A DNA stretch of 64,000 bases from an uncultured Bacteroidales bacterium (GTDB taxonomy: Bacteria > Bacteroidota > Bacteroidia > Bacteroidales > UBA3824), in assembly GCA_947168365.1 (NCBI GenBank), contig CAMVLO010000006.1, positions 4,833 to 68,832 on the forward strand, read 5' to 3'. The notes under the pieces were generated by a model, which was not told where the DNA came from, made no database searches, and was given only the letters and a program-made list of their open reading frames with translations. The translations under genes were made by a program, and so were the position numbers. This document shows, piece by piece, positions 11,237 to 56,059 of the stretch (position 1 is its first letter; each line of letters starts with the position of its first letter).

Positions 11237-12604
11237 ATGGACGAACACAACCATCACAAAGGAAACAACGAAAACTCCAAAGGCGATAAACCTAAGGATA
11301 CAAAAGCTGCTGATATCTCTAACGAGAAAACGGCAGATAAACAAAATAATAATACTGAGAACATAAATAAAGAAGATGCAATACCGGAATCTTTTGCGGG
11401 ACTCAACATCAACGACGATGACACCGACAAAAACTCCGACTTTACGGCTGCTCTCTTTCATGAATTACAAAACGAAAAAGAATTTGACGTTTCTGACAGC
11501 ATCGTTACCAATATCAACAATGCTGACTTGATGTTATCTTATATCATCAATCAAGGTATTGATATCCCCGAAAAGTTGGTAAAATCTGTAGTTAACTGTA
11601 AATATGCTTACAAGAAAAACAGATGGACCCCGGATATTGAAGTGGAATTCAATATGGCATTCAAGGAACTCACCAACCTGATAAAACCGGTAACAGTCGA
11701 TTCATTAGCATCATCCATGCCGTCAGAACTAAAAGACGGCATATCAGACCGTATCGTAAAATTCTTCGGACGAAACAAAAGAAATGCATTATCAAAACGC
11801 TCGGCTCGAGGTTATACATTAGGTACAGTAATATGTATGATCGTACTATTATTTGTCCAAATATATTTCTACTTAGGATCTACACGTCTTACAAATATAG
11901 AAGAATGCGGAACCAAGATAGATGAAAAACAAAACCGTCTTACCGAATTGATGATTGTACAATCAAGCGAAAACGAAAACATCGCGGTAAATACTGAGTT
12001 CGAAAGAGTACAATCCGATATCATGGAACTCGATGCAAAACGAAAAGCAAATATCGAAATGCTTGAACCGTGGGTACATTTCGTAAGATTCCTTACTTTC
12101 AACACCACAATCAGAACAGATACCATAGCGATGTCATCCATCGAAGCTCACGATGCCAACACTGCTATCGTACAAGAAGCAAAAAGTTACGATTTGATTC
12201 TTGGTATATACGTATTGCCGTTACTCTACGGAATAATCGGAGGCTTTACATTTGTATTACGCGAATTAACCCAAGAAATCAAAAACCTTACATTCTCAAC
12301 AGGCAGCGATGTAAAATACCTGCTCAGAATACTTCTCGGAGCAATCGCAGGTCTTAGTGTCGGACTGTTTTGGGGAGATATCGAAAACACAGATTACGGA
12401 ATAGCATCATTATCACCGATGTTGCTGGCATTCTTAGGAGGATACTTGGTAGAATACTTATTGCTATTCTTAGAAAAACTCGCCACATCATTCTTCAGGA
12501 AATACGATCCCGAAACAGAACACAAAGAAGAAAAGAAAGCAGAGCCAAAACCCGCACCGGTAAAAGCTTCCGACAATTCCAACAACGAAGTTGACAACAA
12601 ATAA
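11237..12604 (+). CDS. Hypothetical membrane protein (disordered Asn/Lys/Asp-rich N-terminus, coiled-coil segment, about 4 TM helices, charged tail)
   Basis: Long ORF with no recognisable catalytic motif. Hydrophobic segments include 'GTVICMIVLLFVQIYFYL', 'LILGIYVLPLLYGIIGGFTFVL', 'LLRILLGAIAGLSVGLFW' and 'MLLAFLGGYLVEYLLLFL'. Confidence 0.7.
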   Translation: MDEHNHHKGNNENSKGDKPKDTKAADISNEKTADKQNNNTENINKEDAIPESFAGLNINDDDTDKNSDFTAALFHELQNEKEFDVSDSIVTNINNADLMLSYIINQGIDIPEKLVKSVVNCKYAYKKNRWTPDIEVEFNMAFKELTNLIKPVTVDSLASSMPSELKDGISDRIVKFFGRNKRNALSKRSARGYTLGTVICMIVLLFVQIYFYLGSTRLTNIEECGTKIDEKQNRLTELMIVQSSENENIAVNTEFERVQSDIMELDAKRKANIEMLEPWVHFVRFLTFNTTIRTDTIAMSSIEAHDANTAIVQEAKSYDLILGIYVLPLLYGIIGGFTFVLRELTQEIKNLTFSTGSDVKYLLRILLGAIAGLSVGLFWGDIENTDYGIASLSPMLLAFLGGYLVEYLLLFLEKLATSFFRKYDPETEHKEEKKAEPKPAPVKASDNSNNEVDNK

Positions 12605-12609
12605 TAATT

Positions 12610-13818
12610 ATGATGCCCAAAGAGATAATAAGGACAATGATGTATTTTATAGCCGTATGCATAAGCGTATGGGCTTGTATATACGGATACTCATTGTCCA
12701 AAGATCTCGAAGAAGATGAGCTGAAACAACTAAAACTCTGGGCAGACGCCGTAGACGAAATCAAAAACGCCGACCTCGACCAGCAAGTATCTCTCATCGC
12801 ATACAAAAGGCTTCAAGAAAACACAAGAATACCAATCATCCTATTCTACGCCGAAGGAGAATACGAATACAGAAACATCGAAATCGATACTTCCGAAATG
12901 CCATTGGAAGATTTCCTGCGCGAAGAATGCAAAAAGATGAACAACAACTCAAGTTCGCCGATAAAAATACAGAGGGACCGCGGAAATTGGGACCTTCTGT
13001 ACTACGGTGAATCTATCAACCTCGAAAAAATCAAAAAATATCCCGTCTGGCAATTTATCGTAACAATTTTTATCATCATATTCACCTTCATCGGACTTAG
13101 AGCATCCAACAAAGCTGACCAAAACAAAGTAATGGTGGGAATGTCCAAAGAAACCGCGCATCAGCTCGGAACACCAATCTCATCATTGCTCGCATGGATA
13201 GAGATGCTAAAACTCGAAAACTACAATCCCGAAGTAACCGACGAAGTAGAAAAAGATGTAAAACGTCTGGAAAAAATAGCGGAACGTTTCTCACGCATCG
13301 GCAACAAACCCGAACTTACCGAAACCGATATTTGTCCCGTGCTCAACAGCGTACTTACATACCTGCATTCCAGAACGTCACAATTTATAGAATACGATAT
13401 CCACATCCCGGAAAAATCCATAATCATCCCGCTCAACACTTCATTGTTTGAATGGGTAATAGAAAACATCTGCAAAAACGCTATCGACGCAATGCAGGGA
13501 AAAGGAAAACTGTCAATAAGGCTTTCCGAAGACAAAGAATATGTAAAAATAGATATCAAAGACACAGGAAAAGGGTTCACCAAAAAGTATTACAAAAGAA
13601 TATTTAAGCCCGGATTCACCACCAAAAAACACGGATGGGGATTAGGACTTTCGTTAGCACAACGTATTATAAATGACTATCATAAAGGTTCGGTATTTGT
13701 AAAAGACAGCGAACCCGGAAAAGGTACTACATTTAGAATACTTTTGCCTAAAAAGAAAAAAATTTCAAAAAAATCTAAAATATTTGAAACCTTTTCAAAA
13801 ATTTTCCGTATAACTTAG
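12610..13818 (+). CDS. Sensor histidine kinase (two TM helices, HisKA + HATPase_c); no response regulator nearby
   Basis: H-box 'ETAHQLGTPISSLLAWIEML', G1 'IDIKDTGKGF' and G2 'HGWGLGLSLAQ'. The start is 5 nt after the preceding stop. Confidence 0.9.
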   Translation: MMPKEIIRTMMYFIAVCISVWACIYGYSLSKDLEEDELKQLKLWADAVDEIKNADLDQQVSLIAYKRLQENTRIPIILFYAEGEYEYRNIEIDTSEMPLEDFLREECKKMNNNSSSPIKIQRDRGNWDLLYYGESINLEKIKKYPVWQFIVTIFIIIFTFIGLRASNKADQNKVMVGMSKETAHQLGTPISSLLAWIEMLKLENYNPEVTDEVEKDVKRLEKIAERFSRIGNKPELTETDICPVLNSVLTYLHSRTSQFIEYDIHIPEKSIIIPLNTSLFEWVIENICKNAIDAMQGKGKLSIRLSEDKEYVKIDIKDTGKGFTKKYYKRIFKPGFTTKKHGWGLGLSLAQRIINDYHKGSVFVKDSEPGKGTTFRILLPKKKKISKKSKIFETFSKIFRIT

Positions 13819-13927
13819 TGTAATTAAAAAACATTGAATGACAGCCCTCATCTGAGACAGACCAGGAAGATATAATGTCAGAACTCTTTTCATAATAAGA
13901 TTTAGGTTAAATTAGTAAGCAGCAAAA

Positions 13928-13961
13928 GGGGTAAGCGTCGCAAGACACTTACCCCTTTTTT
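13928..13961 (+). terminator. Rho-independent terminator of the membrane-protein/kinase operon
   Basis: ggggtaag (13928-13935) pairs with cttacccc (13948-13955) and is followed by tttttt. Confidence 0.75.
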
Positions 13962-14178
13962 ATTTACAATTTACTACAATCAACAATCATTCTCAATCCC
14001 GATATAGAAAAACTTCTGCAATATCTTCTTACTTTAACATCTTTTCGATGACCAAGTGTTGCCTTCAGCCGAAAAATTTAATAATTATCTGATAATCAAA
14101 AATTCCTTTCAAACAAATATCAATAGCAAAACAGATGTTCATCGGTGAAAAATAAAATAGAATAAGGATATAATCCAA

Positions 14179-14923
14179 ATGTCAACATCGAAATTTTAAA
14201 CAGGTAACAAAGTTATTGAAATTAACATCATTGACATCGGATACAGAAAATAATATTCAACAATATAACAACAATGAAAAATCGATGTCAATATAAATAA
14301 TAACATGATGTCATCATCGAAATTACCGTGGGAATTATGACCATGACACCATGTAAACATGGATAATGACATGTCAATATTAATAATAACATGATGTCAC
14401 CATCGAAATTCCCGTGGGAATTATGACCATGACACCATGTAAACATGGATAATGACATGTCAATATTAATAATAACATGATGTCACGGTCGAAATTACCG
14501 TGGGAATTACGACCGCGACCCCAGGTGAAAACGGAAAAAGACATGTCAATATCGATAATTATAGGATGTCACGGTCGTAATTCCCTCGGCGATTACGACC
14601 GCGACACCAGGTGAAAATGAAAAATGACGTGTCTATATCGATAATTATGGGATGTCACGGTCGTAATTCCCTCGGCGATCACGACCGCGACCCCAGGTGA
14701 AAATGGAAAATTCCATGTCTATATCGAAAATTATGGGATGTCACGGTCGTAATTCCCTCGGCGATCACGACCGCGACACCAGGTGAAAATGAAAAATGCG
14801 ATGTCAATATCGATAATAACATGATGTCATCATCGTAATCACCGTGGTAATCTTGACCATGATAACAGGTAAATATGAAGAATCCGATGTCAAGATAGAT
14901 AATAACATGATGTCATCATCGAA
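14179..14923. repeat. Non-coding tandem array: seven exact 86-bp units (14285-14886), a truncated 8th unit and a decayed upstream copy
   Basis: Unit starts were counted at 14285, 14371, 14457, 14543, 14629, 14715 and 14801, with a partial unit at 14887. Each unit has two (G)ATGTCA boxes and a central inverted repeat. There is no ORF of 60 aa or more, and the 86-bp period is not divisible by 3. Confidence 0.95.
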
Positions 14924-14962
14924 TTTTTTTATTTAAAGAAATATTTTCTACAAAAAAATGTT

Positions 14963-14970
14963 TATATTTG
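14963..14970 (+). promoter_or_regulatory. Bacteroidota-type -7 promoter box (TAtaTTTG) for the toxin-antitoxin operon
   Basis: Matches TAnnTTTG, 24 nt upstream of the ATG at 14994. It overlaps the palindrome atttgtgtcaaat (14966-14978). Confidence 0.5.
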
Positions 14971-14993
14971 TGTCAAATAAAAAAAATAACATC

Positions 14994-15197
14994 ATGGCAG
15001 TAATTACAATTGATTATGACGAGCATAACAAAACAGCTCGCGCTATAATTAAATTAATAGAAGAGTCAGGACTTTTTACCATCTTAAAGGACGATGAACC
15101 TAATGAAACTACTAAGCAAGCTATTAGAGATGCTCAAAGTGGTAAAACTTATAAGGCAAAGAGTTTTGATGATTTAGTTAATTATTTAGAGAATTGA
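14994..15197 (+). CDS. Type II antitoxin (small, 67 aa) paired with a YafQ-family toxin
   Basis: Small acidic protein 'MAVITIDYDEHNKTARAIIKLIEESG...'. Its stop TGA overlaps the toxin ATG (TGATG). I prefer the ATG at 14994 over 14958 because 14958 lies upstream of the -7 box. Confidence 0.7.
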   Translation: MAVITIDYDEHNKTARAIIKLIEESGLFTILKDDEPNETTKQAIRDAQSGKTYKAKSFDDLVNYLEN

Positions 15198-15469
15198 TGT
15201 ACAATATAGAATCAACAAGACAATTTCGCACTGACTACAAATCTTTGAACAAATCAGATGCGCAAAAAGTTTTGCAAACTATCAAAATACTTCAAGAAGA
15301 AGGCACATTACCCAAAGAGCCTTATCACCCTCATAGACTAAAAGGTAATTATGTAGGGAATTGGGAAGCTCATGTACGTCCGGATTTACTTCTAATCTGG
15401 TACATTATTGAAAAAGACACTATAAAATTATTGAGAGTTGGCAGTCACGCAAAATTGTTCAACATGTAA
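15197..15469 (+). CDS. yafQ: Type II toxin, YafQ/RelE-family mRNA interferase
   Basis: 'YHPHRLKGNYVGNWEAHVRPDLLLIWYIIEKDTIKLLRVGSHAKLF' matches the characteristic YafQ C-terminal pattern (H.L.G....E.H+.PD.LLIY....L.L.R.GSH..LF). Confidence 0.85.
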   Translation: MYNIESTRQFRTDYKSLNKSDAQKVLQTIKILQEEGTLPKEPYHPHRLKGNYVGNWEAHVRPDLLLIWYIIEKDTIKLLRVGSHAKLFNM

Positions 15470-15494: not shown

Positions 15495-15612
15495 TTGTGT
15501 AGAGACGTTGTGTACAACGTCTCTACACAATAATATTCGTATTTTTAGACGTTGTACACAACGTCTCTACACAATTATTCGTATTTTCAGACGTTGTACA
15601 CAACGTCTCTAC
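15495..15612. repeat. Cluster of three REP-like palindromes (agacgttgt-NN-acaacgtct cores) in 42-44-bp direct repeats
   Basis: 15495-15530 is a 17+17-bp perfect palindrome (ttgtgtagagacgttgt gt acaacgtctctacacaa). Cores recur at 15547-15566 and 15589-15608 with the shared spacer tattcgtatttt. Confidence 0.9.
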
Positions 15613-15742
15613 GGGGCAGATTGAAATTCCTTTCTCAGAAAAATATTTTCAGGTGTTTTTTTAACATAAGTGTAATACAACTCGTATTTTGCAGTGTCAA
15701 AACTATTTACTACTTTTGAAAACTTTTTTAGATTATCAGTAC

Positions 15743-17596
15743 ATGCAAAACTTATTAAACGACTTACAGGAATTGTTGATGCAGGACGAGCGGTTTGTAG
15801 CTGACGGTAAACTCCTGAAAAACAAAATTATAGAATGTGCCCTCAATTTGGATTCCGAACTGTTGAAGGAACTATTGGGCAACAAGCAACTAAAGGAACA
15901 TTTCTTTGTGCAAGCCGGCGATGTAATCGTTTTCGACAAAATTAAATTCCAAAAGTTTGTTTCTAATAAACAATTTTTGGCTGATTCATATACCTCTTAC
16001 AAGAATAGAATAGGTCTGGCAAAAGACGGAGATTATCTCTCTGACTGCAAGGATGTTGTATTGCAATGGGCTTACAAGGACTGCATATTGGAAGGCGGTC
16101 AGTCAAGAGACGAACAAAAGAAATATGAAGTGTTTTATAATGAGGTACTTGCACCAAATAATATCAACCGTCTGCTGGATGCTAAGGTTTTTACAAATTT
16201 TAAAAGGTACGAACAGGACAAGGTAACTGAAAATCCTCAGATTAATCAAGATGACAATTTGATTATTAAGGGTAACAACTTGTTGGTGCTTCATTCTTTG
16301 AAAAAAATTAAGAGTATATGCGGCAAGGTAAAATGTATTTTTATCGACCCGCCTTACAATACTGATAATGATTCTTTTAAATATAACGACAGTTTCAATC
16401 ACAGTACTTGGTTGACGTTTATGAAAAACAGGGTGGCTGTATCTCACGACTTGTTGAGTGAGGACGGTTTGTTCTGGGTTTCGCTATCGGACCACGAGGC
16501 TCATTATTTTAAGGTGATGACCGATGAGATTTTTGGTCGTGACAATTTTGTGGCTGACGTGATTTGGAATTCTACCAAGTCTGTTACAAATACAGCTATT
16601 ATTTCGGGCGCTACTACGCATGTGTTGTTATACGCCAAGAATGCTAAGTTGTTGAAACAGAACAGGACTTCGTTTAGACTTACTGCCGATGAGCAAAAGT
16701 TTTCCAATCCGGACAACGACCCGCGCGGCAAGTGGGTGGCTGACCCGTTTCAGGTGGGTGGCGAACGTCCTAATCAATTGTATGAAATCACAAACCCCAA
16801 AACAGGTGTTGTGTACAAGCCGTTGCCGGGCAACAGTTGGAAAAACGAGAAAAAAGTTTTTGACGTGTTGATGTCGGAAGGCAGAATAATCTTTGGTACT
16901 AAGGGAGATGCAGGTCCTCAGCGCAAACGTTTCTGGAGCGAGGCAAAAGAGCGCGGCGAGGTTACTACTACACTTTGGAAAGATTTGCCGACTACTACTA
17001 ACGGCACTGCGCATCTCAAGGAGCTTTTTGGTGACAGGATTTTCAATAATCCGAAACCTGAAGGCTTGATAGAGAGAGTTTTACAGTTATCTACCAACGA
17101 AGGCGACTTGGTATTGGATTTTTGTCTTGGCAGCGGTACTACATGTACGGCGGCTCACAAGATGAAACGCAGATATATCGGCGTGGAACAGATGGATTAT
17201 ATCGAGGAAGTATCTATCGCAAGACTCAAAAAAGTTTTGGAAGGCGAACAAGGCGGTATTTCAAGGACTAACGGCTGGGAAGGCGGCGGAAGTTTTGTTT
17301 ATTGCGAGCTGATGAAAGATACTCAAAACGATATTGAAAGAATACTTGGCGCCAAGGACGAAGAGTTGTTACAGATTTTTGACGAACTGCCACAAAGTAA
17401 GTCCAGAAAATATTTTATCAAAAATCTCGACAAGGAAGGATTTCTTGCGCTCAACTCCAAAGATAAGAAGAAGATACTGTTGGATTGTGTTAACAAAAAT
17501 AATCTTTATGTTAACTTGTCGGAAATAGACGACGAGGATTATGCCGTTAGCGACAACGACAAGATGTTAACAAAGAGATTGTACAGTTTTGAGTAA
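15743..17596 (+). CDS. mod: Type III restriction-modification system methyltransferase (Mod), beta-class N6A/N4C MTase
   Basis: 'CIFIDPPYNT' (motif IV) precedes 'LDFCLGSGTTCTAAHKMKRRYIGVE' (motif I). It is followed directly by a res gene. The listed ORF begins at TTG 15689, and ATG 15743 is the more likely start. Confidence 0.9.
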   Translation: MQNLLNDLQELLMQDERFVADGKLLKNKIIECALNLDSELLKELLGNKQLKEHFFVQAGDVIVFDKIKFQKFVSNKQFLADSYTSYKNRIGLAKDGDYLSDCKDVVLQWAYKDCILEGGQSRDEQKKYEVFYNEVLAPNNINRLLDAKVFTNFKRYEQDKVTENPQINQDDNLIIKGNNLLVLHSLKKIKSICGKVKCIFIDPPYNTDNDSFKYNDSFNHSTWLTFMKNRVAVSHDLLSEDGLFWVSLSDHEAHYFKVMTDEIFGRDNFVADVIWNSTKSVTNTAIISGATTHVLLYAKNAKLLKQNRTSFRLTADEQKFSNPDNDPRGKWVADPFQVGGERPNQLYEITNPKTGVVYKPLPGNSWKNEKKVFDVLMSEGRIIFGTKGDAGPQRKRFWSEAKERGEVTTTLWKDLPTTTNGTAHLKELFGDRIFNNPKPEGLIERVLQLSTNEGDLVLDFCLGSGTTCTAAHKMKRRYIGVEQMDYIEEVSIARLKKVLEGEQGGISRTNGWEGGGSFVYCELMKDTQNDIERILGAKDEELLQIFDELPQSKSRKYFIKNLDKEGFLALNSKDKKKILLDCVNKNNLYVNLSEIDDEDYAVSDNDKMLTKRLYSFE

Positions 17597-17651
17597 CACC
17601 GGATAAAAAAAAGTAAAAAGAAAAGAAACAAACAAGGTAAAGATACACAGG

Positions 17652-20252
17652 ATGAAACTCAACGAGGAATTAAACGAATTATTGAAATCCAACGAAGAAG
17701 TATTTCAACAATTGGTTCCCGGCTATATAAGAGAGAATCTAAAACCGAGTTTTGAGCTGCGCCCTTATCAGCTTGAGGCTTTCGGACGTTTTGTCTATTA
17801 CAACGAGAATTATCGCAAGAGCCCCAACCCTACCCAACTGCTGTTTCACATGGCTACGGGCAGCGGCAAAACTCTTATCATGGCGGGACTTATGATATAT
17901 TTGTATCAACAAGGATACAGAAATTTTCTGTTTTTTGTTAACAGTACAAATATTATTGATAAGACCAAAGACAATTTCTTGAATGCGAACTCCATCAAGT
18001 ATCTGTTTTCAGAAAGGCTTTCGATAGCTGATAAAAAGTTTGAAATTGCAGAAGTATCCAATTTTCAAGATACTAATCAAGATAATATTAATATCTGCTT
18101 TAGCACTGTACAAGGGCTTCATGCGCTACTAAACACTCCCAAGGAAAACGAAATAACTTTCGACGACTTTGAAAACAGCAAGGTTGTGCTTATTGCCGAC
18201 GAAGCTCATCATATCAACGCCGATACCAAGAATGCTAAAAAACGTACTCCCGAAGAACAGGAAAATATCGACAGTTGGGAAGGCACGGTAACAAGGATTT
18301 TTAATGCCAACAAGGAAAATATCATGTTGGAATTTACGGCAACGGCAGATCTGAAGAATCCTCTGATAGCTTTTAAGTATGACAACAAGCTGTTGTTTGA
18401 TTATCCTTTGAGCAAGTTTAGGGCCGAGGGTTATTCCAAAGATGTACAGACATTGCAGGCTACACTTCCTGTATTTGAAAGGGCGGTACAGGCAATAATA
18501 TTAAGTCAATACCGTCAAAAACTTTTTGAGAAATATGGCATAAGAATAAAACCTGTAGTACTCTTTAAGTCCAAGACGATAAAAGAGAGCAAGGATTTTC
18601 AGACTGCATTTACCGAAAATCTAAAGCATCTCAACGCGGGCACATTGCAAAATATAAAGAATCTCAACCGCGATACGGTGTTAAGGAAAGTGTTTGACTA
18701 TTTGGAGAAAAACAGTATTCCGCTTGAGAACTTTTGTGAGGAACTCAAAGACGATTTTGCCGCTGATAAACAAATCTCGGTAAACTCCAGAGAAGAGAGC
18801 GAAGAGAAACAAATAGCAATCAACACTTTGGAGAACGAGAAAAATATCTACCGCGCAATTTTCGCTGTTGACAAGCTGAACGAAGGTTGGGATGTTTTGA
18901 ACTTGTTTGATATCGTAAGGCTTTATGATACAAGAGATTCCAAAAACGGAGTACCGGGCAAAACTACAATGCAGGAAGCGCAATTGATAGGACGCGGTGC
19001 AAGATATTGTCCGTTTAGAGTAGATGGTATTGACAATGCATATATCCGCAAGTTTGACGAAGATACGGAAAACGAGCTAAAAATTTGCGAAGAACTTTAT
19101 TATCATGCTTCGTATAATCCGGGATATATTGTGGAGCTAAACCGTGCACTTGTCAACATGGGCATAAAACCCGTAAAATTAGTACAAAGGCAGCTCAACT
19201 TAAAGGAAGAGTTTAAGAATACGGATTTTTATCGTAACGGATTTATTCTAAAAAATCACAAGGAGAAAAATACACGCGCAAATGTATTCTCATTGAAATC
19301 CTCAATACTGGAACAAGTATTTGAAGCGAAGATAAATTCCGAAACGGTTGAAGAAAAAGAAGCGTTTACAGCCGGCAAGCGCAACGATACCAAGAATATT
19401 ACCGAGCAGGAATATTTTCTACCGGAATTGGGAGAGATAATAATCCGCGAAGCGATGTCGAGATTGGAATTTTACAGGTTTGACAATCTGAAGAAATATT
19501 TGCCGAATCTGAAATCAGTAAGCGAGTTTATAACTTCAAATAATTATCTCGGAAAAATCCGTGTAAAAATAAAAGCTGAAGACACAGACCTTAACAATAT
19601 ATCAGCAGAAGAAAAACTCCGCGTAGCAATCAACCTTTTGAACACGATAGCTCCGATAATAGGTTCCGACAAAATAGAAAGTATCGGTTCCAAGGATTTC
19701 ACGGCGTTTGCAATAAAAGATGTATTCAAAAGTAAGTTGATGAACTTTACGCTTGATAACAAATCCGACAGAGAATTTGGCAAATCGATGCTTGACGAAA
19801 AAGAGACCAAAATGCCGCTCAATATCAACGAAAAGCAATGGTATGCTCAAGAGGATTGTTTCGGAACTTCGGAAGAGAAATCGTTTGTACTATATATCAA
19901 TAGTATCTACGAGGAGTTGAAAGCAAAATACGAAGAAATATACTTACTAAGAAACGAGCGAGATTTTCAATTACATGCTTTTTACGACGGAAGAGCATTT
20001 GAGCCGGATTTTGTATTGTTTCTGAGTAAAAATAATAATGGTAAAAAAGAATATACTCAAGTTTTTGTAGAGCCCAAAGGTCCGCAACTAATAGAGCGTG
20101 ACGGTTGGAAAGAGCGTTTCTTAAATGAAATAAGTTCGCAATCTACAAATACGGCAAATATAAGACTTCTCGCAATGCCATTTTATTGTTTTGAGGATGA
20201 CAAGAAACTCAACGAGTTTAAGTCAACATTTGAGAAAGCAATATTAGGCTAA
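17652..20252 (+). CDS. res: Type III restriction enzyme Res subunit (SF2 helicase + PD-(D/E)XK nuclease)
   Basis: 'FHMATGSGKTLIMAG' (Walker A), 'VLIADEAHH' (DEAH box), 'NEGWDVLNL' and C-terminal 'FEPDFVLF...VFVEPKG' (PD...ExK). Confidence 0.9.
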   Translation: MKLNEELNELLKSNEEVFQQLVPGYIRENLKPSFELRPYQLEAFGRFVYYNENYRKSPNPTQLLFHMATGSGKTLIMAGLMIYLYQQGYRNFLFFVNSTNIIDKTKDNFLNANSIKYLFSERLSIADKKFEIAEVSNFQDTNQDNINICFSTVQGLHALLNTPKENEITFDDFENSKVVLIADEAHHINADTKNAKKRTPEEQENIDSWEGTVTRIFNANKENIMLEFTATADLKNPLIAFKYDNKLLFDYPLSKFRAEGYSKDVQTLQATLPVFERAVQAIILSQYRQKLFEKYGIRIKPVVLFKSKTIKESKDFQTAFTENLKHLNAGTLQNIKNLNRDTVLRKVFDYLEKNSIPLENFCEELKDDFAADKQISVNSREESEEKQIAINTLENEKNIYRAIFAVDKLNEGWDVLNLFDIVRLYDTRDSKNGVPGKTTMQEAQLIGRGARYCPFRVDGIDNAYIRKFDEDTENELKICEELYYHASYNPGYIVELNRALVNMGIKPVKLVQRQLNLKEEFKNTDFYRNGFILKNHKEKNTRANVFSLKSSILEQVFEAKINSETVEEKEAFTAGKRNDTKNITEQEYFLPELGEIIIREAMSRLEFYRFDNLKKYLPNLKSVSEFITSNNYLGKIRVKIKAEDTDLNNISAEEKLRVAINLLNTIAPIIGSDKIESIGSKDFTAFAIKDVFKSKLMNFTLDNKSDREFGKSMLDEKETKMPLNINEKQWYAQEDCFGTSEEKSFVLYINSIYEELKAKYEEIYLLRNERDFQLHAFYDGRAFEPDFVLFLSKNNNGKKEYTQVFVEPKGPQLIERDGWKERFLNEISSQSTNTANIRLLAMPFYCFEDDKKLNEFKSTFEKAILG

Positions 20253-40487: not shown

Positions 40488-43085
40488 ATGAAAAACCTGA
40501 ATGTAGCTCACATATCAATTAAACAAAGTATTCTAAGCAGTTTGATAAACGGCGAAACAAACGAAGACCCAAAATATTGCAATATCAAAGCTAGTCTTAT
40601 TAACAATGCGATGGTATTTCCCGTGCCCGAAGTTTTCGACTTGAAACAATTTGCTGAAGATTTCAAAAAGTTTCTCGCAGATGATCTCAAAATTAAAACC
40701 GAATCGGAAACTTTCGGCGATGACATCTTTTCGTTGCCATTTTCTCCAATCGGACTCGGCCTTATGAAAAAAACTATAATTTTCACGATGTTCGATTTCC
40801 ATCTTTACATGAATATAATTCCCGTAAAAGAAATTGAAAACGCAAATTACAGCGAAAACAAAATTTCGGAATTTTTATCGTCCGGGAAAAACGAACAGAT
40901 TTATACTTTTACTGAAAATTATATACTAAATCTCTATCCCGAAGATATCAGAAAAACTGTAAAAGGATTCAACAGATATTACTACACTCAAAATCCCGGA
41001 ATAGCTGCTATTTTGGCAAAACATCTTGAAGACGGCGAAGAAATAATGGCGAAATTGGACATCTACAAGATAGAACAGTCAAAATCTAACGCTCAAACAA
41101 GCGAAGCAGACCAAAGTTTTTATTTATTGACTACCTTCGGGGCATATTTATTTGTAACAGATAAAAACCAACAAGAAAAGTATATAGAAACGTTAAGTGC
41201 TGAAAAACTCAAAGTTACAAGTCGTATAGGTCGCGACGATGTACAATGCGGAGTTACAAAATGGGTTACAAATCGCGATAATGACTTTTTGTTTGATGAA
41301 ATTCAAGATTTAAACAATCTCGAACAAAACGAAAAGATAAAAAAATTTGCAATTGCCAATTTCAATCACGCTGAAAAAAACGAGGACAAAGTAAATGCAG
41401 CCAAATGGTTGGAAACATTTGCAAAGGTTACCAATTGTCCGTTCAACAATTTTGCAGCAAAAGTTTTGAAATTCAGCAGTCAAATATCTGAAGATAATAT
41501 TGATGAAACTACAGCAAAAGAATTGATGGACAGCGCAAACTCGCTGTTTTCGGTAACTGATTTCGAGAAACGAATCAAGGAATTTTTATCTGACTTTAAT
41601 TTCAGTGCCAAAGAAATCATCACACTTATATATGTAATATCAAGAGCCAAAAACCGACTTTCGGATATCAATTCGTTCAAAGAAACGATGTTGATGTTGA
41701 AAGAAAAATATTTTAAACTTGACGACGACAACAACAACCGCGCATTTATAGAAATTTCGATTGCAAAAAAATTGAATATTCTTGGCGACAAAACATCAAG
41801 CATGAAACTTGCAAAAGATGCTCTTGATATAATTTCTGACCAAACAACTGTAAAACTCCGCCCGATGTACGACACTACTCCGGAAATGCCTTACAACGGA
41901 GCAGCGTTATATGTTGCAGCGATAGAAGAACTTAGCAAGGCATCGGAATCAGAAAAAGACAAACAGAAATATGCGCAACTTCTCGCGATAGAAAAACCGT
42001 TGATTAAGAAAAATATTACAAATCTTCAAAAAGTAACAACCGACGAAGATTTAAAGAAACGCATTTCGAATCTCGAAGGATTGTACAGCGCACAAAATTT
42101 CAACAATTTTACTTACGAAAGCGAATACACATTCAAAACCAAATATTCAAAACTATCTACCAAACTTTTTACAGAAAGTACGCAACGCGGAAAAGCATAC
42201 AGAGATTTGAATGATTGGATTGCGAAAATACAGCCGGACAAAACATTGAGCACCATAAAAGAACACGCTCAAAAAGTAACGGAAGAAAACTATTCGCAAC
42301 TAAATTCGCTCGTAGAAACCTGCCGCGATTTTTTTGAAATGCCCGAAGTAGAAGTCTACGTAATATTCAATCGAAATCAAGGCGTAATATCCAACGACGA
42401 CGGCGAAACAAAATATATAATTCTCGATGGCGAACTCCTTGATACAGACAGTGCTAACTATATGAACTTATCAGAAATGATATTCGTATTGGGAAAAGAA
42501 TTTGCAAGTTTGAAAACCGGAATATCCAAACTCTCGAGTCACGGACAATGGAGAAATTTTGCCAACGTAGGAATTATAAGCACCGATATAATAAAACAAT
42601 TTGTACAAAATCCCGAATTCTTGAAAAACGATGCACGGAATTACAACAAATTGATGAAATTCAGCGAATTGCTTACCGAAAACGCCGGATATTACAATTT
42701 TGACATCGAGGATACCAATTCGGCTGCCAAGATGTTAAAACAAACAATGAAAGCGATAGAATACAAAGGAACACCCAAAATAGAAAACCTCAGCGAAAAA
42801 GAATATTGGGCATTATCGTTGTTAACAACAATAATTACCGACCGAATAGGCCTCGTGATGAATCAAAACATCGTTTATGCCGTAAAAGGAATCATCGACA
42901 ACGACAAATATATCAACGGCGGCATAGAATTTTGCAAGGATAATTCGGTAATAGAACTCGCAAATAGCAAAACTGCGGACCAAAAACCGTCAAATTACGA
43001 TTTTTCGATGCGATTAAATGCTCTTATAGGATTTTATTTATCAGACAATTACAAAGAACTTTGTAAAGAGATGCAAAAAAATTGA
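40488..43085 (+). CDS. Large hypothetical protein (865 aa), no confident domain; possible degenerate M48-like segment near the C-terminus
   Basis: Uninterrupted 2.6-kb ORF. 'YIILDGELLD...LSEMIFVLGKEFASLKTG' aligns by eye to the M48 block '..GLL..L...EL.AVLAHELGHIKNG', but both His are replaced. Confidence 0.75.
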   Translation: MKNLNVAHISIKQSILSSLINGETNEDPKYCNIKASLINNAMVFPVPEVFDLKQFAEDFKKFLADDLKIKTESETFGDDIFSLPFSPIGLGLMKKTIIFTMFDFHLYMNIIPVKEIENANYSENKISEFLSSGKNEQIYTFTENYILNLYPEDIRKTVKGFNRYYYTQNPGIAAILAKHLEDGEEIMAKLDIYKIEQSKSNAQTSEADQSFYLLTTFGAYLFVTDKNQQEKYIETLSAEKLKVTSRIGRDDVQCGVTKWVTNRDNDFLFDEIQDLNNLEQNEKIKKFAIANFNHAEKNEDKVNAAKWLETFAKVTNCPFNNFAAKVLKFSSQISEDNIDETTAKELMDSANSLFSVTDFEKRIKEFLSDFNFSAKEIITLIYVISRAKNRLSDINSFKETMLMLKEKYFKLDDDNNNRAFIEISIAKKLNILGDKTSSMKLAKDALDIISDQTTVKLRPMYDTTPEMPYNGAALYVAAIEELSKASESEKDKQKYAQLLAIEKPLIKKNITNLQKVTTDEDLKKRISNLEGLYSAQNFNNFTYESEYTFKTKYSKLSTKLFTESTQRGKAYRDLNDWIAKIQPDKTLSTIKEHAQKVTEENYSQLNSLVETCRDFFEMPEVEVYVIFNRNQGVISNDDGETKYIILDGELLDTDSANYMNLSEMIFVLGKEFASLKTGISKLSSHGQWRNFANVGIISTDIIKQFVQNPEFLKNDARNYNKLMKFSELLTENAGYYNFDIEDTNSAAKMLKQTMKAIEYKGTPKIENLSEKEYWALSLLTTIITDRIGLVMNQNIVYAVKGIIDNDKYINGGIEFCKDNSVIELANSKTADQKPSNYDFSMRLNALIGFYLSDNYKELCKEMQKN

Positions 43086-43164: not shown

Positions 43165-43236
43165 GGTCCTTTCGTCTAGAGGCTAGGACGCAAGATTTTC
43201 ATTCTTGTAACACGGGTTCGATTCCCGTAGGGACTA
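43165..43236 (+). tRNA. tRNA-Glu (anticodon UUC)
   Basis: Cloverleaf read by hand: acceptor ggtcctt/agggact, D-arm gtc-tagaggctag-gac, anticodon stem caaga/tcttg with loop ttTTCat, T-arm acggg-ttcgatt-cccgt. It closely parallels E. coli tRNA-Glu. Confidence 0.9.
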
Positions 43237-43240
43237 CAAA

Positions 43241-48153: not shown

Positions 48154-49527
48154 ATGAAAAAAATCAATTATTTAATGATTGCTCTTGCATTGAGCACATT
48201 GCCGCTTTCGTCGTGTTCCAAAGACGACGAGGATCCGGATAATACCGTAAACAACAATCAAAACCCGAACAACGGCAATCAGAACGGAGATCAGAACATC
48301 AATCAAAACCCGAACAACAACACAACAGACGAGGGAAAAACATACGTTTGTAGTGTAGAAAATGCACCGGCAAAGATGTCTGAAAAGTTGGGACTTGGTT
48401 GGAATCTCGGAAATCAACTGGACGCTCACGCCAACGAAGTAGCTAACGAAACTTGTTGGGGAAACGAAGCAACTACTCAAGAAGCTTTCAACAAGATAGC
48501 GGCTGCCGGAATTAAAACTGTAAGAATTCCTGTAACATGGATGGGACATATTGGCGGAGCTCCAGAATACAAAATTGAAGAAGCTTGGCTCAATCGCGTT
48601 TATGAAATCGTAGGATACGCAGAAAATGCCGGACTGAACGCAATTATCAACATCCATCATGACGGAGCAGAGTCAAAATATTGGCTTAATATCATAAAAG
48701 CAGCAAAAATTACAGAAGCAAATACTTCTATCAAAGCAAAATTTGAAGCGATATGGAAACAAATTGCAGAAAAGTTTAAAGACAAAGGCGATTTCTTGAT
48801 TTTTGAAGCTGTAAACGAAATTCAAGACGGCAAATGGGGCTGGGGAGCAAACAGAACCGACGGAGGCAAACAATATCAAGTTCTCAACGAATGGCTTAAT
48901 TTGTTTGTTAAAACAGTTCGTGCTACAGGCGGCAACAATGCTACAAGATGGCTTGGTATTCCGGCTTATAATACCGACATCGATTTGGCTGTAGAATCGC
49001 TAAAAATACCTTACGACGAAGCCGGCAAACTTATGGTAGCTGTACATTTCTATGCACCGTCAGAATATACTTTGTCAGTAAAATATTCGGAATGGGGGCA
49101 CACAGGCACAGACAAAGCTGCCAACAGCGACGAAGAAATGGTAAAAACACAATTCAAAAAGCTTTATGACAATTACACCCAAAAGAATATTCCGGTATAT
49201 TTGGGCGAATTCGGAAATGTATGTCGCAATACTGATCCTAATTCAAAACTTGAACAATTCAGACGTTATTATTTAGAATACGTTTGCAAAGCAGCAAAAA
49301 ACAACAGCGTAGCTCCAATTCTTTGGGACAATGGAGTAATTCTTAGGGACAATGGAGTAATTGGCTCAGGAGAAAAAAATGAAAAACACGGATATTTCAA
49401 TCACGCTACAGGTGAATTTATCAACGACGGCGAAGTAATGATTAACGCGATGTTGAAAGCTGTAAACGATAAAAGCGAGGATTATACTCTTGACTGGATT
49501 TATGAAAATGTAGCTCCTAAAAAATAA
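48154..49527 (+). CDS. Glycoside hydrolase family 5 (endoglucanase/mannanase-type) lipoprotein
   Basis: Lipobox 'LPLSSC', Asn/Gln-rich linker, 'IHHD', acid/base 'FEAVNEIQ' and nucleophile 'VYLGEFG'. Confidence 0.85.
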   Translation: MKKINYLMIALALSTLPLSSCSKDDEDPDNTVNNNQNPNNGNQNGDQNINQNPNNNTTDEGKTYVCSVENAPAKMSEKLGLGWNLGNQLDAHANEVANETCWGNEATTQEAFNKIAAAGIKTVRIPVTWMGHIGGAPEYKIEEAWLNRVYEIVGYAENAGLNAIINIHHDGAESKYWLNIIKAAKITEANTSIKAKFEAIWKQIAEKFKDKGDFLIFEAVNEIQDGKWGWGANRTDGGKQYQVLNEWLNLFVKTVRATGGNNATRWLGIPAYNTDIDLAVESLKIPYDEAGKLMVAVHFYAPSEYTLSVKYSEWGHTGTDKAANSDEEMVKTQFKKLYDNYTQKNIPVYLGEFGNVCRNTDPNSKLEQFRRYYLEYVCKAAKNNSVAPILWDNGVILRDNGVIGSGEKNEKHGYFNHATGEFINDGEVMINAMLKAVNDKSEDYTLDWIYENVAPKK

Positions 49528-54713: not shown

Positions 54714-55164
54714 TGTTTTCATTTTATTAATTTACAATAGGTTGTTTTTTTTAAAATACGTAGTTTCTTCTCTAATTGTTAAATCTTTAATACTTATTAT
54801 GTTTCTTACAATTATATCTAAATAATAGTAAAAAAAGGTTTAGGTAATTTTTTATATTTACTATTTTTTGAGTTAAAAGATTTCAGGTAAAATATGTTAA
54901 TAAATAATAGTTTAATTGTTTTAAGTTGTTACAAAAAAAAACTGTTAATAAATTTGATCAAGGTTTATTCTAGCATTTTATTAAGTTAATTAGTTTGTAG
55001 TTGTTATCGTTTGACATTACAAATGTATGTAATAATATCAAAACAGCACTCATTCATTTTGTTCATTTTGAAAATCAACCTTAACATCTTGAAATTCTGA
55101 AAATTAAGAGCTAAAAATTTTCAATATTAAAGATTTTTCTGTTGATTTTTTCTCGAAAAAAATA

Positions 55165-55172
55165 TACCTTTG
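55165..55172 (+). promoter_or_regulatory. Bacteroidota-type -7 promoter box (TAccTTTG)
   Basis: Matches TAnnTTTG, 30 nt upstream of the ATG at 55202. Confidence 0.45.
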
Positions 55173-55201
55173 CTGTTGATAATCAAAAAAACGGTACAAT
55201 T

Positions 55202-56059
55202 ATGCCAAAATATCTTGACCCGAAGGCGGATTTAACCTTCAAGAAAATATTCGGACAGCACAAACATCTGGTGATGAGCCTTTTGAATGCGTTGTTGCCA
55301 TTACCCGACGATATGGAAATTAAGTCGGTTGAATATCTTACACCCGAAAACATCCCCGACACTCCGGCAAAAAAATATTCTATTGTTGATGTGTATTGTA
55401 CAGACAATTACAAAAGAAATTTTATTGTTGAAATGCAATCGTATTGGAACACGGAATTTTTTGCCCGTACGTTGTTTAATGCAGCATCAGTTTATACCAA
55501 GCAGTTGAAAAAAGGGATGTCATTCAGCGACTTGAAAGATGTATACGCATTGAGCCTTGTAAACGATAAAAAAGGTTTTAACTACGGCGACAAAGAATAT
55601 ATTCAGGAGTATTATCTTACTAACAAACAACATGAGAAAGATAAACGCACAGATATTTCAATGGTGTTTATTGTACTGCCAAATTTCAAACCACAGAATC
55701 GTGCCGTAAAAAAAATGCACGACCTTTGGCTCAAGTTTTTAACCGAAATAGATGAAAATACTATAGATGCAGCCCCTGAACTTATTGAAAACAAAGAGAC
55801 TAATGAAGCATTAGAAATGTTGCGAGCTTCGGCATTCACCGACGAAGAGATGATGGCATACGAAAAATATTGGCTTGATGTCAGCACAGAAAAATCTGCT
55901 TTGGAACACGAGCGTGAAGAAGGTCGTGCTGAAGGTCGTGCTGAAGGAGAACAATCAAAAGCCATATCCATCGCCCGCATGATGAAAGCCGATGGCGAAC
56001 CTGTTGAAAAAATAATAAAATATTCCGGTCTTACCGCTGAAGAAATTTCTAATTTATAA
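55202..56059 (+). CDS. Rpn-family recombination-promoting nuclease / putative transposase (PD-(D/E)XK)
   Basis: 'YLDPKADLTFKKIFG' N-terminus, 'SIVDVYCTD...FIVEMQ' nuclease core and the C-terminal 'EGRAEGRAEGE...IARMMK' repeat typical of the family. The listed ORF start 55142 lies upstream of the -7 box. Confidence 0.85.
   Translation: MPKYLDPKADLTFKKIFGQHKHLVMSLLNALLPLPDDMEIKSVEYLTPENIPDTPAKKYSIVDVYCTDNYKRNFIVEMQSYWNTEFFARTLFNAASVYTKQLKKGMSFSDLKDVYALSLVNDKKGFNYGDKEYIQEYYLTNKQHEKDKRTDISMVFIVLPNFKPQNRAVKKMHDLWLKFLTEIDENTIDAAPELIENKETNEALEMLRASAFTDEEMMAYEKYWLDVSTEKSALEHEREEGRAEGRAEGEQSKAISIARMMKADGEPVEKIIKYSGLTAEEISNL

Follow-up and report, generated by a model that had tools for sequence, protein, structure and literature searches.

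An intergenic tandem array of 86-bp units (14285–14923) lies between a histidine kinase gene and an antitoxin/YafQ toxin gene pair in an uncultured Bacteroidales bacterium. Positions are those of the window, the whole 64,000-nucleotide stretch of contig CAMVLO010000006.1 that was analysed. The unit is non-coding and repeated head to tail, the locus is fixed with a copy number that varies among strains, and mosaic units bear the signs of recombination between units. The array sequence is found at a single locus in one uncultured ruminant-gut-associated Bacteroidales species, and the two arms of the palindrome in each unit are not coupled. We consider it probable, at roughly 60%, that the array is a locus-specific, hypervariable intergenic minisatellite, i.e. 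a variable number tandem repeat (VNTR), on the chromosome of this species. Turnover by slippage and conversion is suggested by the observed pattern and by precedent, and we infer that the array lacks function.

Array structure and polymorphism among strains

Tandem Repeats Finder detected one strong array at 14285–14923 (period 86, 7.4 copies, 86% matches, 0% indels, score 613). Cutting every 86 bp from 14285 gives seven full units, u01–u07, which start at 14285, 14371 and so on up to 14801 and occupy 14285–14886, followed by a truncated eighth unit (columns 1–37) at 14887–14923, which extends up to the T-run in front of the toxin-antitoxin promoter. No strand is assigned to either feature; the full units are defined by Tandem Repeats Finder, the identity matrix and the cross-strain unit catalogue, and the truncated unit by the cutting and the strain comparison. 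Units 1, 2, and 7 belong to an outer type and units 4–6 to an inner type; unit 3 is mosaic between the two. In the identity matrix, the units of one array are 67–97% identical to each other, with a mean column identity of 87% in the unit alignment. An earlier description of this DNA (the original prediction) had proposed the seven 86-bp units with a truncated eighth, the two types with the mosaic unit 3, and differences at 3/86 positions between units 1 and 2 and at 6/86 between units 5 and 6, and re-cutting and comparison of the units reproduced all of these.

The 28-bp two-box pattern of the unit has eight matches in the 64-kb window, compared with 0.00 expected from shuffles. Measured from start to start, the spacing of the ATGTCA boxes alternates between 23 and 63 bp (14285, 14308, 14371). 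Of the 16 boxes, 14 are exact; the exceptions are the first boxes of unit 5 (GTGTCT) and unit 6 (ATGTCT). The original prediction had given the spacing as 22/64 bp and counted all 16 boxes alike. The junction palindrome TGACATGTCA, predicted for several junctions, is seen at some unit junctions only.

A coding role is rejected because stops occur in all frames. The period of 86 is not a multiple of 3, and the longest open frame is 58 amino acids. The array was predicted to lie in a gap free of open reading frames (ORFs) at 13962–14993; the intergenic gap is actually 13819–14993, and mechanical ORFs of 45–58 amino acids are present within the array on both strands. They form no continuous frame and are repeat-phase artefacts. 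The array is not CRISPR either, as was also anticipated: the whole unit is conserved, and no Cas domain was found in the scanned ORFs of the window, namely those of at least 150 amino acids that are not nested in longer ORFs.

The flank upstream of unit 1 (14113–14284, no strand) contains decayed unit fragments, as judged from local alignment to a unit dimer. One is ATGTCAACATCGAAATT at 14179–14195 (16/17 match), half a unit out of register, and the other is AATGAAAAATCG, 12–15 bp immediately 5′ of unit 1. The alignment score of the flank is 30, compared with 18 ± 3 and a maximum of 34 in shuffles, and its in-register identity to the unit is just 33–40/86. Only fragments are present, and not the whole decayed copy that had been assigned to 14179–14284.

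Look-ups of the exact antitoxin, kinase, mod, and ribE proteins gave contigs from more than 10 further samples (ENA, Logan, and JGI). The gene order of kinase, array, antitoxin/YafQ, a 42-bp repeat, mod/res, and ribE is common to all contigs found. No empty site was seen among the contigs carrying antitoxin, mod, or ribE, every one of which has the same arrangement. In the arrays that span both flanks, the number of full units is seven in the window, nine in L021, eight in L037, and six in L031 and L045, each followed by the fixed truncated unit. L033 is without u07, and L027 carries a fusion of u07 and the truncated unit. The haplotypes recur across independent samples and assemblers, L031 being the same as L045 and L021 corresponding to L037 with one extra unit. 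Over all contigs, 22 distinct units are found, and these are mosaics of shared variant blocks of two ancestral types. The original prediction of ongoing duplication or conversion is borne out by these copy numbers, mosaics, deletions, and fusions.

The two edges of the array behave differently from its interior in that u07 is near-universal across strains and the truncated unit is identical in 12 of 13 sequences. The 466-bp upstream flank shows five substitutions and one indel across four haplotypes, a divergence of about 1%. Comparison of this value with the 67–97% identity of the units indicates that the array turns over much faster than its surroundings, through recombination between units, as is characteristic of a VNTR. 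Several contigs from other samples begin inside the array, which is the likely cause of contig breaks at this locus. Separately, three contigs from different samples and assemblers (L046, L047, and L048) end at window positions 13902–13908, 84–91 bp past the stop codon of the kinase gene and just before the kinase terminator hairpin. No alternative junction was found, and this shared end may be a strain-level structural variant or a repeat boundary.

The unit was found nowhere else. Searches of the array with blastn ('distant' mode) gave no match among 72,556 plasmids or 50,697 phages, and neither the two-box pattern nor the palindrome-core pattern has a match in IMG/VR (0 for each). In 185,579 GTDB species genomes, the two-box pattern has three single matches; none of these is in an array, and they are therefore judged to be chance matches. 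In the metagenome collection (JGI and others), one true contig was obtained, L021, with eight matches at 86-bp spacing. L021 represents the same locus in another strain, with near-identical flanks and 9.6 copies. The collection scans return this locus alone and no dispersed copies, and within the window, the part of the source genome that was searched directly, the arm motif of the palindrome is confined to the array. The nearest relatives of the kinase are only 59% identical and differ in synteny, and the orthologous locus gave no date for the array.

The palindromic core and a possible route to turnover

Each unit contains an inverted repeat with arms of about 21 bp (GATGTCAYSRTCGWAATYMCC) around two central bases, at unit columns 23–66. 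An example is found at 14307–14350 (no strand), where the arm pattern matches both strands as it does within each unit; the core occupies the same columns in every unit, e.g. 14565–14608. The central inverted repeat of the original prediction is thus present throughout, but it is larger than stated (21 + 2 + 21) and imperfect, with 70% Watson-Crick pairs over the 22 distinct units. The stem itself is real: on the plus strand, 74.7% of the paired positions in 13 units are standard pairs, compared with 23–52% when the partner columns are slid.

However, no compensatory signal is observed on either strand. With the 3′ partners shuffled among the 13 units, pairing is 74.6% on the plus strand (74.7% observed) and 85.6% on the minus strand (85.7% observed). 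Nor is pairing reduced when the right arms of the 22 units are exchanged with one another, the observed values being 0.732 and 0.851 and the swap means 0.736 and 0.857 for the plus and minus strands, respectively. The palindrome arms vary independently, and mosaics that combine an outer left arm with an inner right arm (for example, u08, u12, and u20) are common. The double change from T-A to C-G noted earlier does exist, at columns 30/59 (CG in 10 units, UA in 2, and another combination in 1), but the shuffling and the arm swaps do not support the idea that compensatory changes maintain the hairpin.

These features would fit the following course of events. An ancestral segment of about 86 bp with a long imperfect palindrome would have been duplicated in place. 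The array could then expand and contract by slipped-strand mispairing, favoured by hairpin-prone palindromes, and a second route may be in-register unequal recombination with gene conversion between units. Both routes together would give mosaic units and strain-specific copy numbers, and the edge units, u07 and the truncated unit beside the toxin-antitoxin promoter, would stay nearly fixed.

The closest described case, and a direct precedent, is that of VNTR-141 and VNTR-105 of Wolbachia, which are intergenic, have 105–141-bp periods with 9-bp-stem hairpins, and vary from 0.8 to 7.3 copies among close strains (PMC3287509). They have been explained by palindrome-promoted slipped-strand mispairing and concerted evolution, and their periods are 98–99% identical, often with internal deletions (PMC3287509). 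The 86-bp array resembles them in being chromosomal, intergenic, and single-locus, with a long period, a hairpin in each period, and a copy number that varies among strains. Unlike them, its units are 67–97% identical, form two-type mosaics, and contain no indels; the palindrome is much longer (21-bp arms), and there is no sequence similarity. A broader parallel is found in the mycobacterial interspersed repetitive unit (MIRU)-VNTR loci and the other minisatellites used for multiple-locus VNTR analysis, which are intergenic repeats of 40–100 bp at fixed loci with strain-specific copy numbers. A genome has about 40 MIRU loci, many of which overlap short ORFs in operons. The 86-bp unit shares the fixed intergenic locus and the strain-specific copy number with them but is found at one locus only. 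Among the three functions offered by the original prediction, a minisatellite fits best, though as a locus-bound repeat and not as a selfish, dispersed one.

Functional and mobile-element alternatives

Several observations weigh against the minisatellite reading or concern the data on which it is based. The sequences all come from short-read metagenome assemblies, in which runs of identical neighbouring units (u01-u01 in L021, for example) may have been assembled with the wrong number of copies. At least 53 substitution events have accumulated at 40 variable columns, yet each of the 22 distinct units is exactly 86 bp long; the flank has one indel per five substitutions, compared with zero indels in the units. 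This absence hints at a constraint on unit length, which a purely neutral array does not predict. Forty-six columns are invariant, including TGTC (columns 2–5), GTCA (26–29), TCG (33–35), and GACC (55–58). In addition, pairing in the core is 85.1–85.7% on the minus strand and 73.2–74.7% on the plus strand, with 70 and 15 G·U cells, respectively, over the 22 units, although this G·U asymmetry rests on about 8 versus 3 independent columns and is not significant.

The constant length and the invariant box cores TGTC and GTCA would suit a protein-binding scaffold, which we regard as an unlikely alternative. An operator, silencer, or nucleoprotein array would form on the TGTCA boxes and/or the 44-bp palindrome, its phased complex would tune the promoter of the antitoxin/YafQ and Type III restriction-modification (R-M) genes, and its copy number would act as a contingency switch. 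The geometry at the 3′ edge is also consistent with such a scaffold. A scan of both strands for TAnnTTTG/TTTG located a Bacteroidetes-type −7 box of the antitoxin/YafQ operon, TATATTTG, at 14963–14970 on the plus strand. It is the only perfect −7 match near the array and is positioned downstream of it; the array ends about 40 bp upstream of this only good promoter (14963). An extra TGTCAA (14971–14976) directly follows the −7 box, and conservation among strains is highest in the units nearest the promoter.

As evidence against a scaffold, we compared five or six antitoxin/YafQ loci of other Bacteroidales in different genomic settings (L039–L044), in which YafQ follows the antitoxin wherever the contig shows it. 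These homologues (57–76% identity) have no array or other tandem repeat and are essentially without upstream TGTCA boxes, so that the proposed link between the array and a toxin-antitoxin operator is not borne out. Within the array, box 2 is altered in u09 and u10 (CAAGTCA) and in u16 (GACGTCA), box 1 varies (GTGTCT, ATGTCT), and no conserved block in the unit exceeds 4 bp. Neither a candidate binding-protein gene nor a rep or par gene was found nearby among the scanned window ORFs. Plasmid iterons and partition centromeres (parC, parS) consist of units of about 10–22 bp and are located on plasmids or phages, next to rep or par genes. Regularly spaced direct boxes are common to them and the array, but the 86-bp unit far exceeds known iterons or centromere repeats, and here the setting is chromosomal, with no rep/par gene and no plasmid or phage match. 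The iteron or centromere option of the original prediction is accordingly not upheld.

It is rather improbable that the array encodes structured RNA on its minus strand. Transcription would then begin close to the toxin-antitoxin promoter region and end at the hairpin at 13928–13961, giving an RNA with 7–10 long hairpins that may be processed into units; a strict unit length would suit a processed RNA. The fold of the outer type is more stable on the minus strand (−29.7 kcal/mol, z = −4.3) than on the plus strand (−18.8 kcal/mol, z = −1.6), as is that of the inner type (−32.4 versus −28.7 kcal/mol), in line with the higher pairing and the G·U excess on that strand. The far-end hairpin, read from the sequence as the terminator of the histidine kinase gene (plus strand), consists of GGGGTAAG, a 12-nucleotide loop, and CTTACCCC, followed by TTTTTT. 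When the stem is read on the reverse strand, TTTT follows, and thus the predicted hairpin could also terminate transcription that leaves the array on the minus strand. As its loop exceeds 8 nucleotides, it escaped the automatic terminator scan.

Contrary to this model, no TAnnTTTG/TTTG motif is present on the minus strand beside or inside the array. Covariation is no higher than in shuffles, and arm swaps leave pairing unchanged. For u07, the unit found most widely, the fold is not more stable than that of shuffled sequence on either of the strands (z = −0.95 and +0.55). The array matches no Rfam family at its gathering threshold; at the E-value level, the only matches are generic plant or animal miRNA-precursor-like hairpin models, far below gathering scores. 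No homologues were found in other species. As for transcription from the plus strand, the −7/−33 motif scan found no TAnnTTTG upstream of the array, in agreement with the original prediction. A sigma-70 scan gave 19 matches versus 10.7 expected, a consensus not applicable to Bacteroidota. A sub-threshold Rfam match to Wolbachia sRNA 46 (WsnRNA46) at 14293–14453 on the plus strand (28.5 bits, gathering score 65.3) is almost certainly a generic hairpin match and not meaningful.

A constraint on unit length can also be taken as the starting point of a single model, in which the length is under selection and the array is a phased element, either a multi-hairpin RNA from the minus strand or a protein scaffold in helical phase, whose copy number would tune or switch the expression of the YafQ toxin-antitoxin and Type III R-M genes. 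We regard this model as improbable.

A mobile origin is very unlikely. The array would then be a cluster of a dispersed mobile repeat, such as a miniature inverted-repeat transposable element (MITE), a repetitive extragenic palindrome (REP), or a REP doublet forming hairpins (REPIN), or it would be the remnant of an element that imported the toxin-antitoxin and R-M genes. The unit core is indeed palindromic, the array borders a small defence-gene cluster, REP-like GTAG...CTAC hairpins are located 600 bp away, and the shared contig end at 13902–13908 is a possible structural variant. However, the confinement of the unit to one locus, the same arrangement in every contig that carries antitoxin, mod, or ribE, and the lack of an empty site argue against mobility. 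No transposase or integrase gene is nearby, the only transposase-family gene being about 40 kb off. REPs and bacterial interspersed mosaic elements (BIMEs) are palindromic extragenic units with a GTAG head that can form regular tandem clusters and are dispersed in tens to hundreds of copies; the 86-bp unit is palindromic too, yet it is single-locus and without GTAG.

A ToxI-like RNA repeat of a Type III toxin-antitoxin system or a degenerate CRISPR-like array, suggested by the position of the tandem non-coding repeats among defence genes and just ahead of a toxin-antitoxin pair, is effectively refuted by gene content: the downstream genes encode a protein antitoxin and a RelE/YafQ toxin and not ToxN, AbiQ, CptN, or TenpN, and no cas domain is found in any scanned window ORF. 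The units are conserved in full, which leaves no unique spacers. ToxI-type repeats have units of about 34–45 nucleotides, a promoter upstream of the repeats, and a ToxN-family endoribonuclease gene that follows them; here the unit is 86 nucleotides and the promoter comes after the array rather than before it, so the analogy with ToxI drawn earlier fails on each of these points. Adenine-specific mutation of the kind made by diversity-generating retroelements was tried as a separate candidate and ruled out, the substitutions not being adenine-specific and no reverse transcriptase gene being found.

On the reading as a locus-specific minisatellite, the array most probably does not serve as a dedicated RNA gene or protein-binding machine, and any effect on the antitoxin/YafQ and Type III R-M genes would be incidental, for instance through spacing or insulation.

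Genomic setting and significance

The locus contains, in order, glycosyltransferase genes, a gene for a 455-amino-acid protein, the histidine kinase gene, the terminator hairpin, the array, the −7 box, and the antitoxin and YafQ/RelE toxin genes; after the toxin gene come a 42-bp repeat, Type III mod, res, and then ribE and proC on the opposite strand. The histidine kinase gene (12610–13818) and the toxin gene are also encoded on an NCBI metagenome-assembled genome (MAG), GCA_017541145.1 (contig JAFXZT010000134.1, 91.5 kb), and the closest kinase homologues are annotated 'MAG: Bacteroidales bacterium'. No response regulator gene adjoins the kinase gene. The 455-amino-acid protein (11237–12604), encoded directly 5′ of the kinase, has no Pfam or NCBIfam match; in a relative with 58% kinase identity (L049), a 384-amino-acid protein with no recorded Pfam match is similarly placed.

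The antitoxin (67 amino acids; 14994–15197, plus strand) is called in public assemblies, and its Pfam match to RelB (E = 0.0028, below the curated cut-off) is weak and corresponds to the RelB C-terminus. The toxin (15194–15469, plus strand) is assigned to the YafQ/RelE family by Pfam YafQ_toxin (1.8e-23) and NCBIfam RelE_StbE (3.9e-16). In two other contigs, the antitoxin is intact, and the YafQ toxin is called at only 67 amino acids (L034, 434–637) or is uncalled (L035, 587–1090). This may reflect ongoing decay of the toxin in some of the population.

The Type III mod (15689/15716–17596) and res (17652–20252) genes occupy 15689–20252 on the plus strand and match Pfam TypeIII_RM_meth, N6_N4_Mtase, and ResIII. 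In L052 (5674–10147), the Type III genes have 98.7% DNA identity, with a called 887-amino-acid res overlapping a 605-amino-acid mod in place of products of 866 and 635 amino acids, which points to strain differences caused by frameshifts in the R-M genes.

Between YafQ and Type III mod lies another tandem array, unrelated to the first (15499–15612, no strand; 42 bp × 2.6 copies by Tandem Repeats Finder). Each unit contains a perfect palindrome with 13-bp arms, GTAGAGACGTTGT..ACAACGTCTCTAC, and its DNA fold has z = −6.0. The GTAG/CTAC ends of this palindrome resemble REP elements, so that the neighbouring repeat, and not the 86-bp unit, looks REP-like. It occurs only here in the window and is present in other strains, and at least one contig from another sample, L052, starts inside it; its REP-like pattern has 0 matches in IMG/VR.

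The scanned ORFs of the window are polysaccharide-synthesis and housekeeping genes without mobile or replicon context, and no rep, par, integrase, cas, or ToxN-type gene is among them. The type IX secretion genes PorZ and GldM are also in the window. The sole mobile-element-type gene found in the window is a PD-(D/E)XK nuclease-family transposase homologue (55142–56059; Pfam PDDEXK_2, 2.7e-40), which lies beside a GldM-like gene about 40 kb from the array. The gene for a GH5 cellulase (48154–49527) contains two 21-bp tandem repeats (48250–48319 and 49317–49362) with the period in frame, and these are probably linker or repeat peptide segments. An 865-amino-acid ORF (40488–43085) with no Pfam match is located just 5′ of a tRNA-Glu gene (43165–43237).

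The significance of the array depends on which reading is correct. If the unit length were selected and the array were a phased element, it would represent a type of long-unit contingency locus that has not been described in Bacteroidota. If both the length and the minus-strand bias were functional, the array would provide a new way to vary defence-gene expression in this phylum, a possibility for which the evidence so far gives no support. Read as a minisatellite, it would mainly be useful as a high-resolution strain marker for this species.

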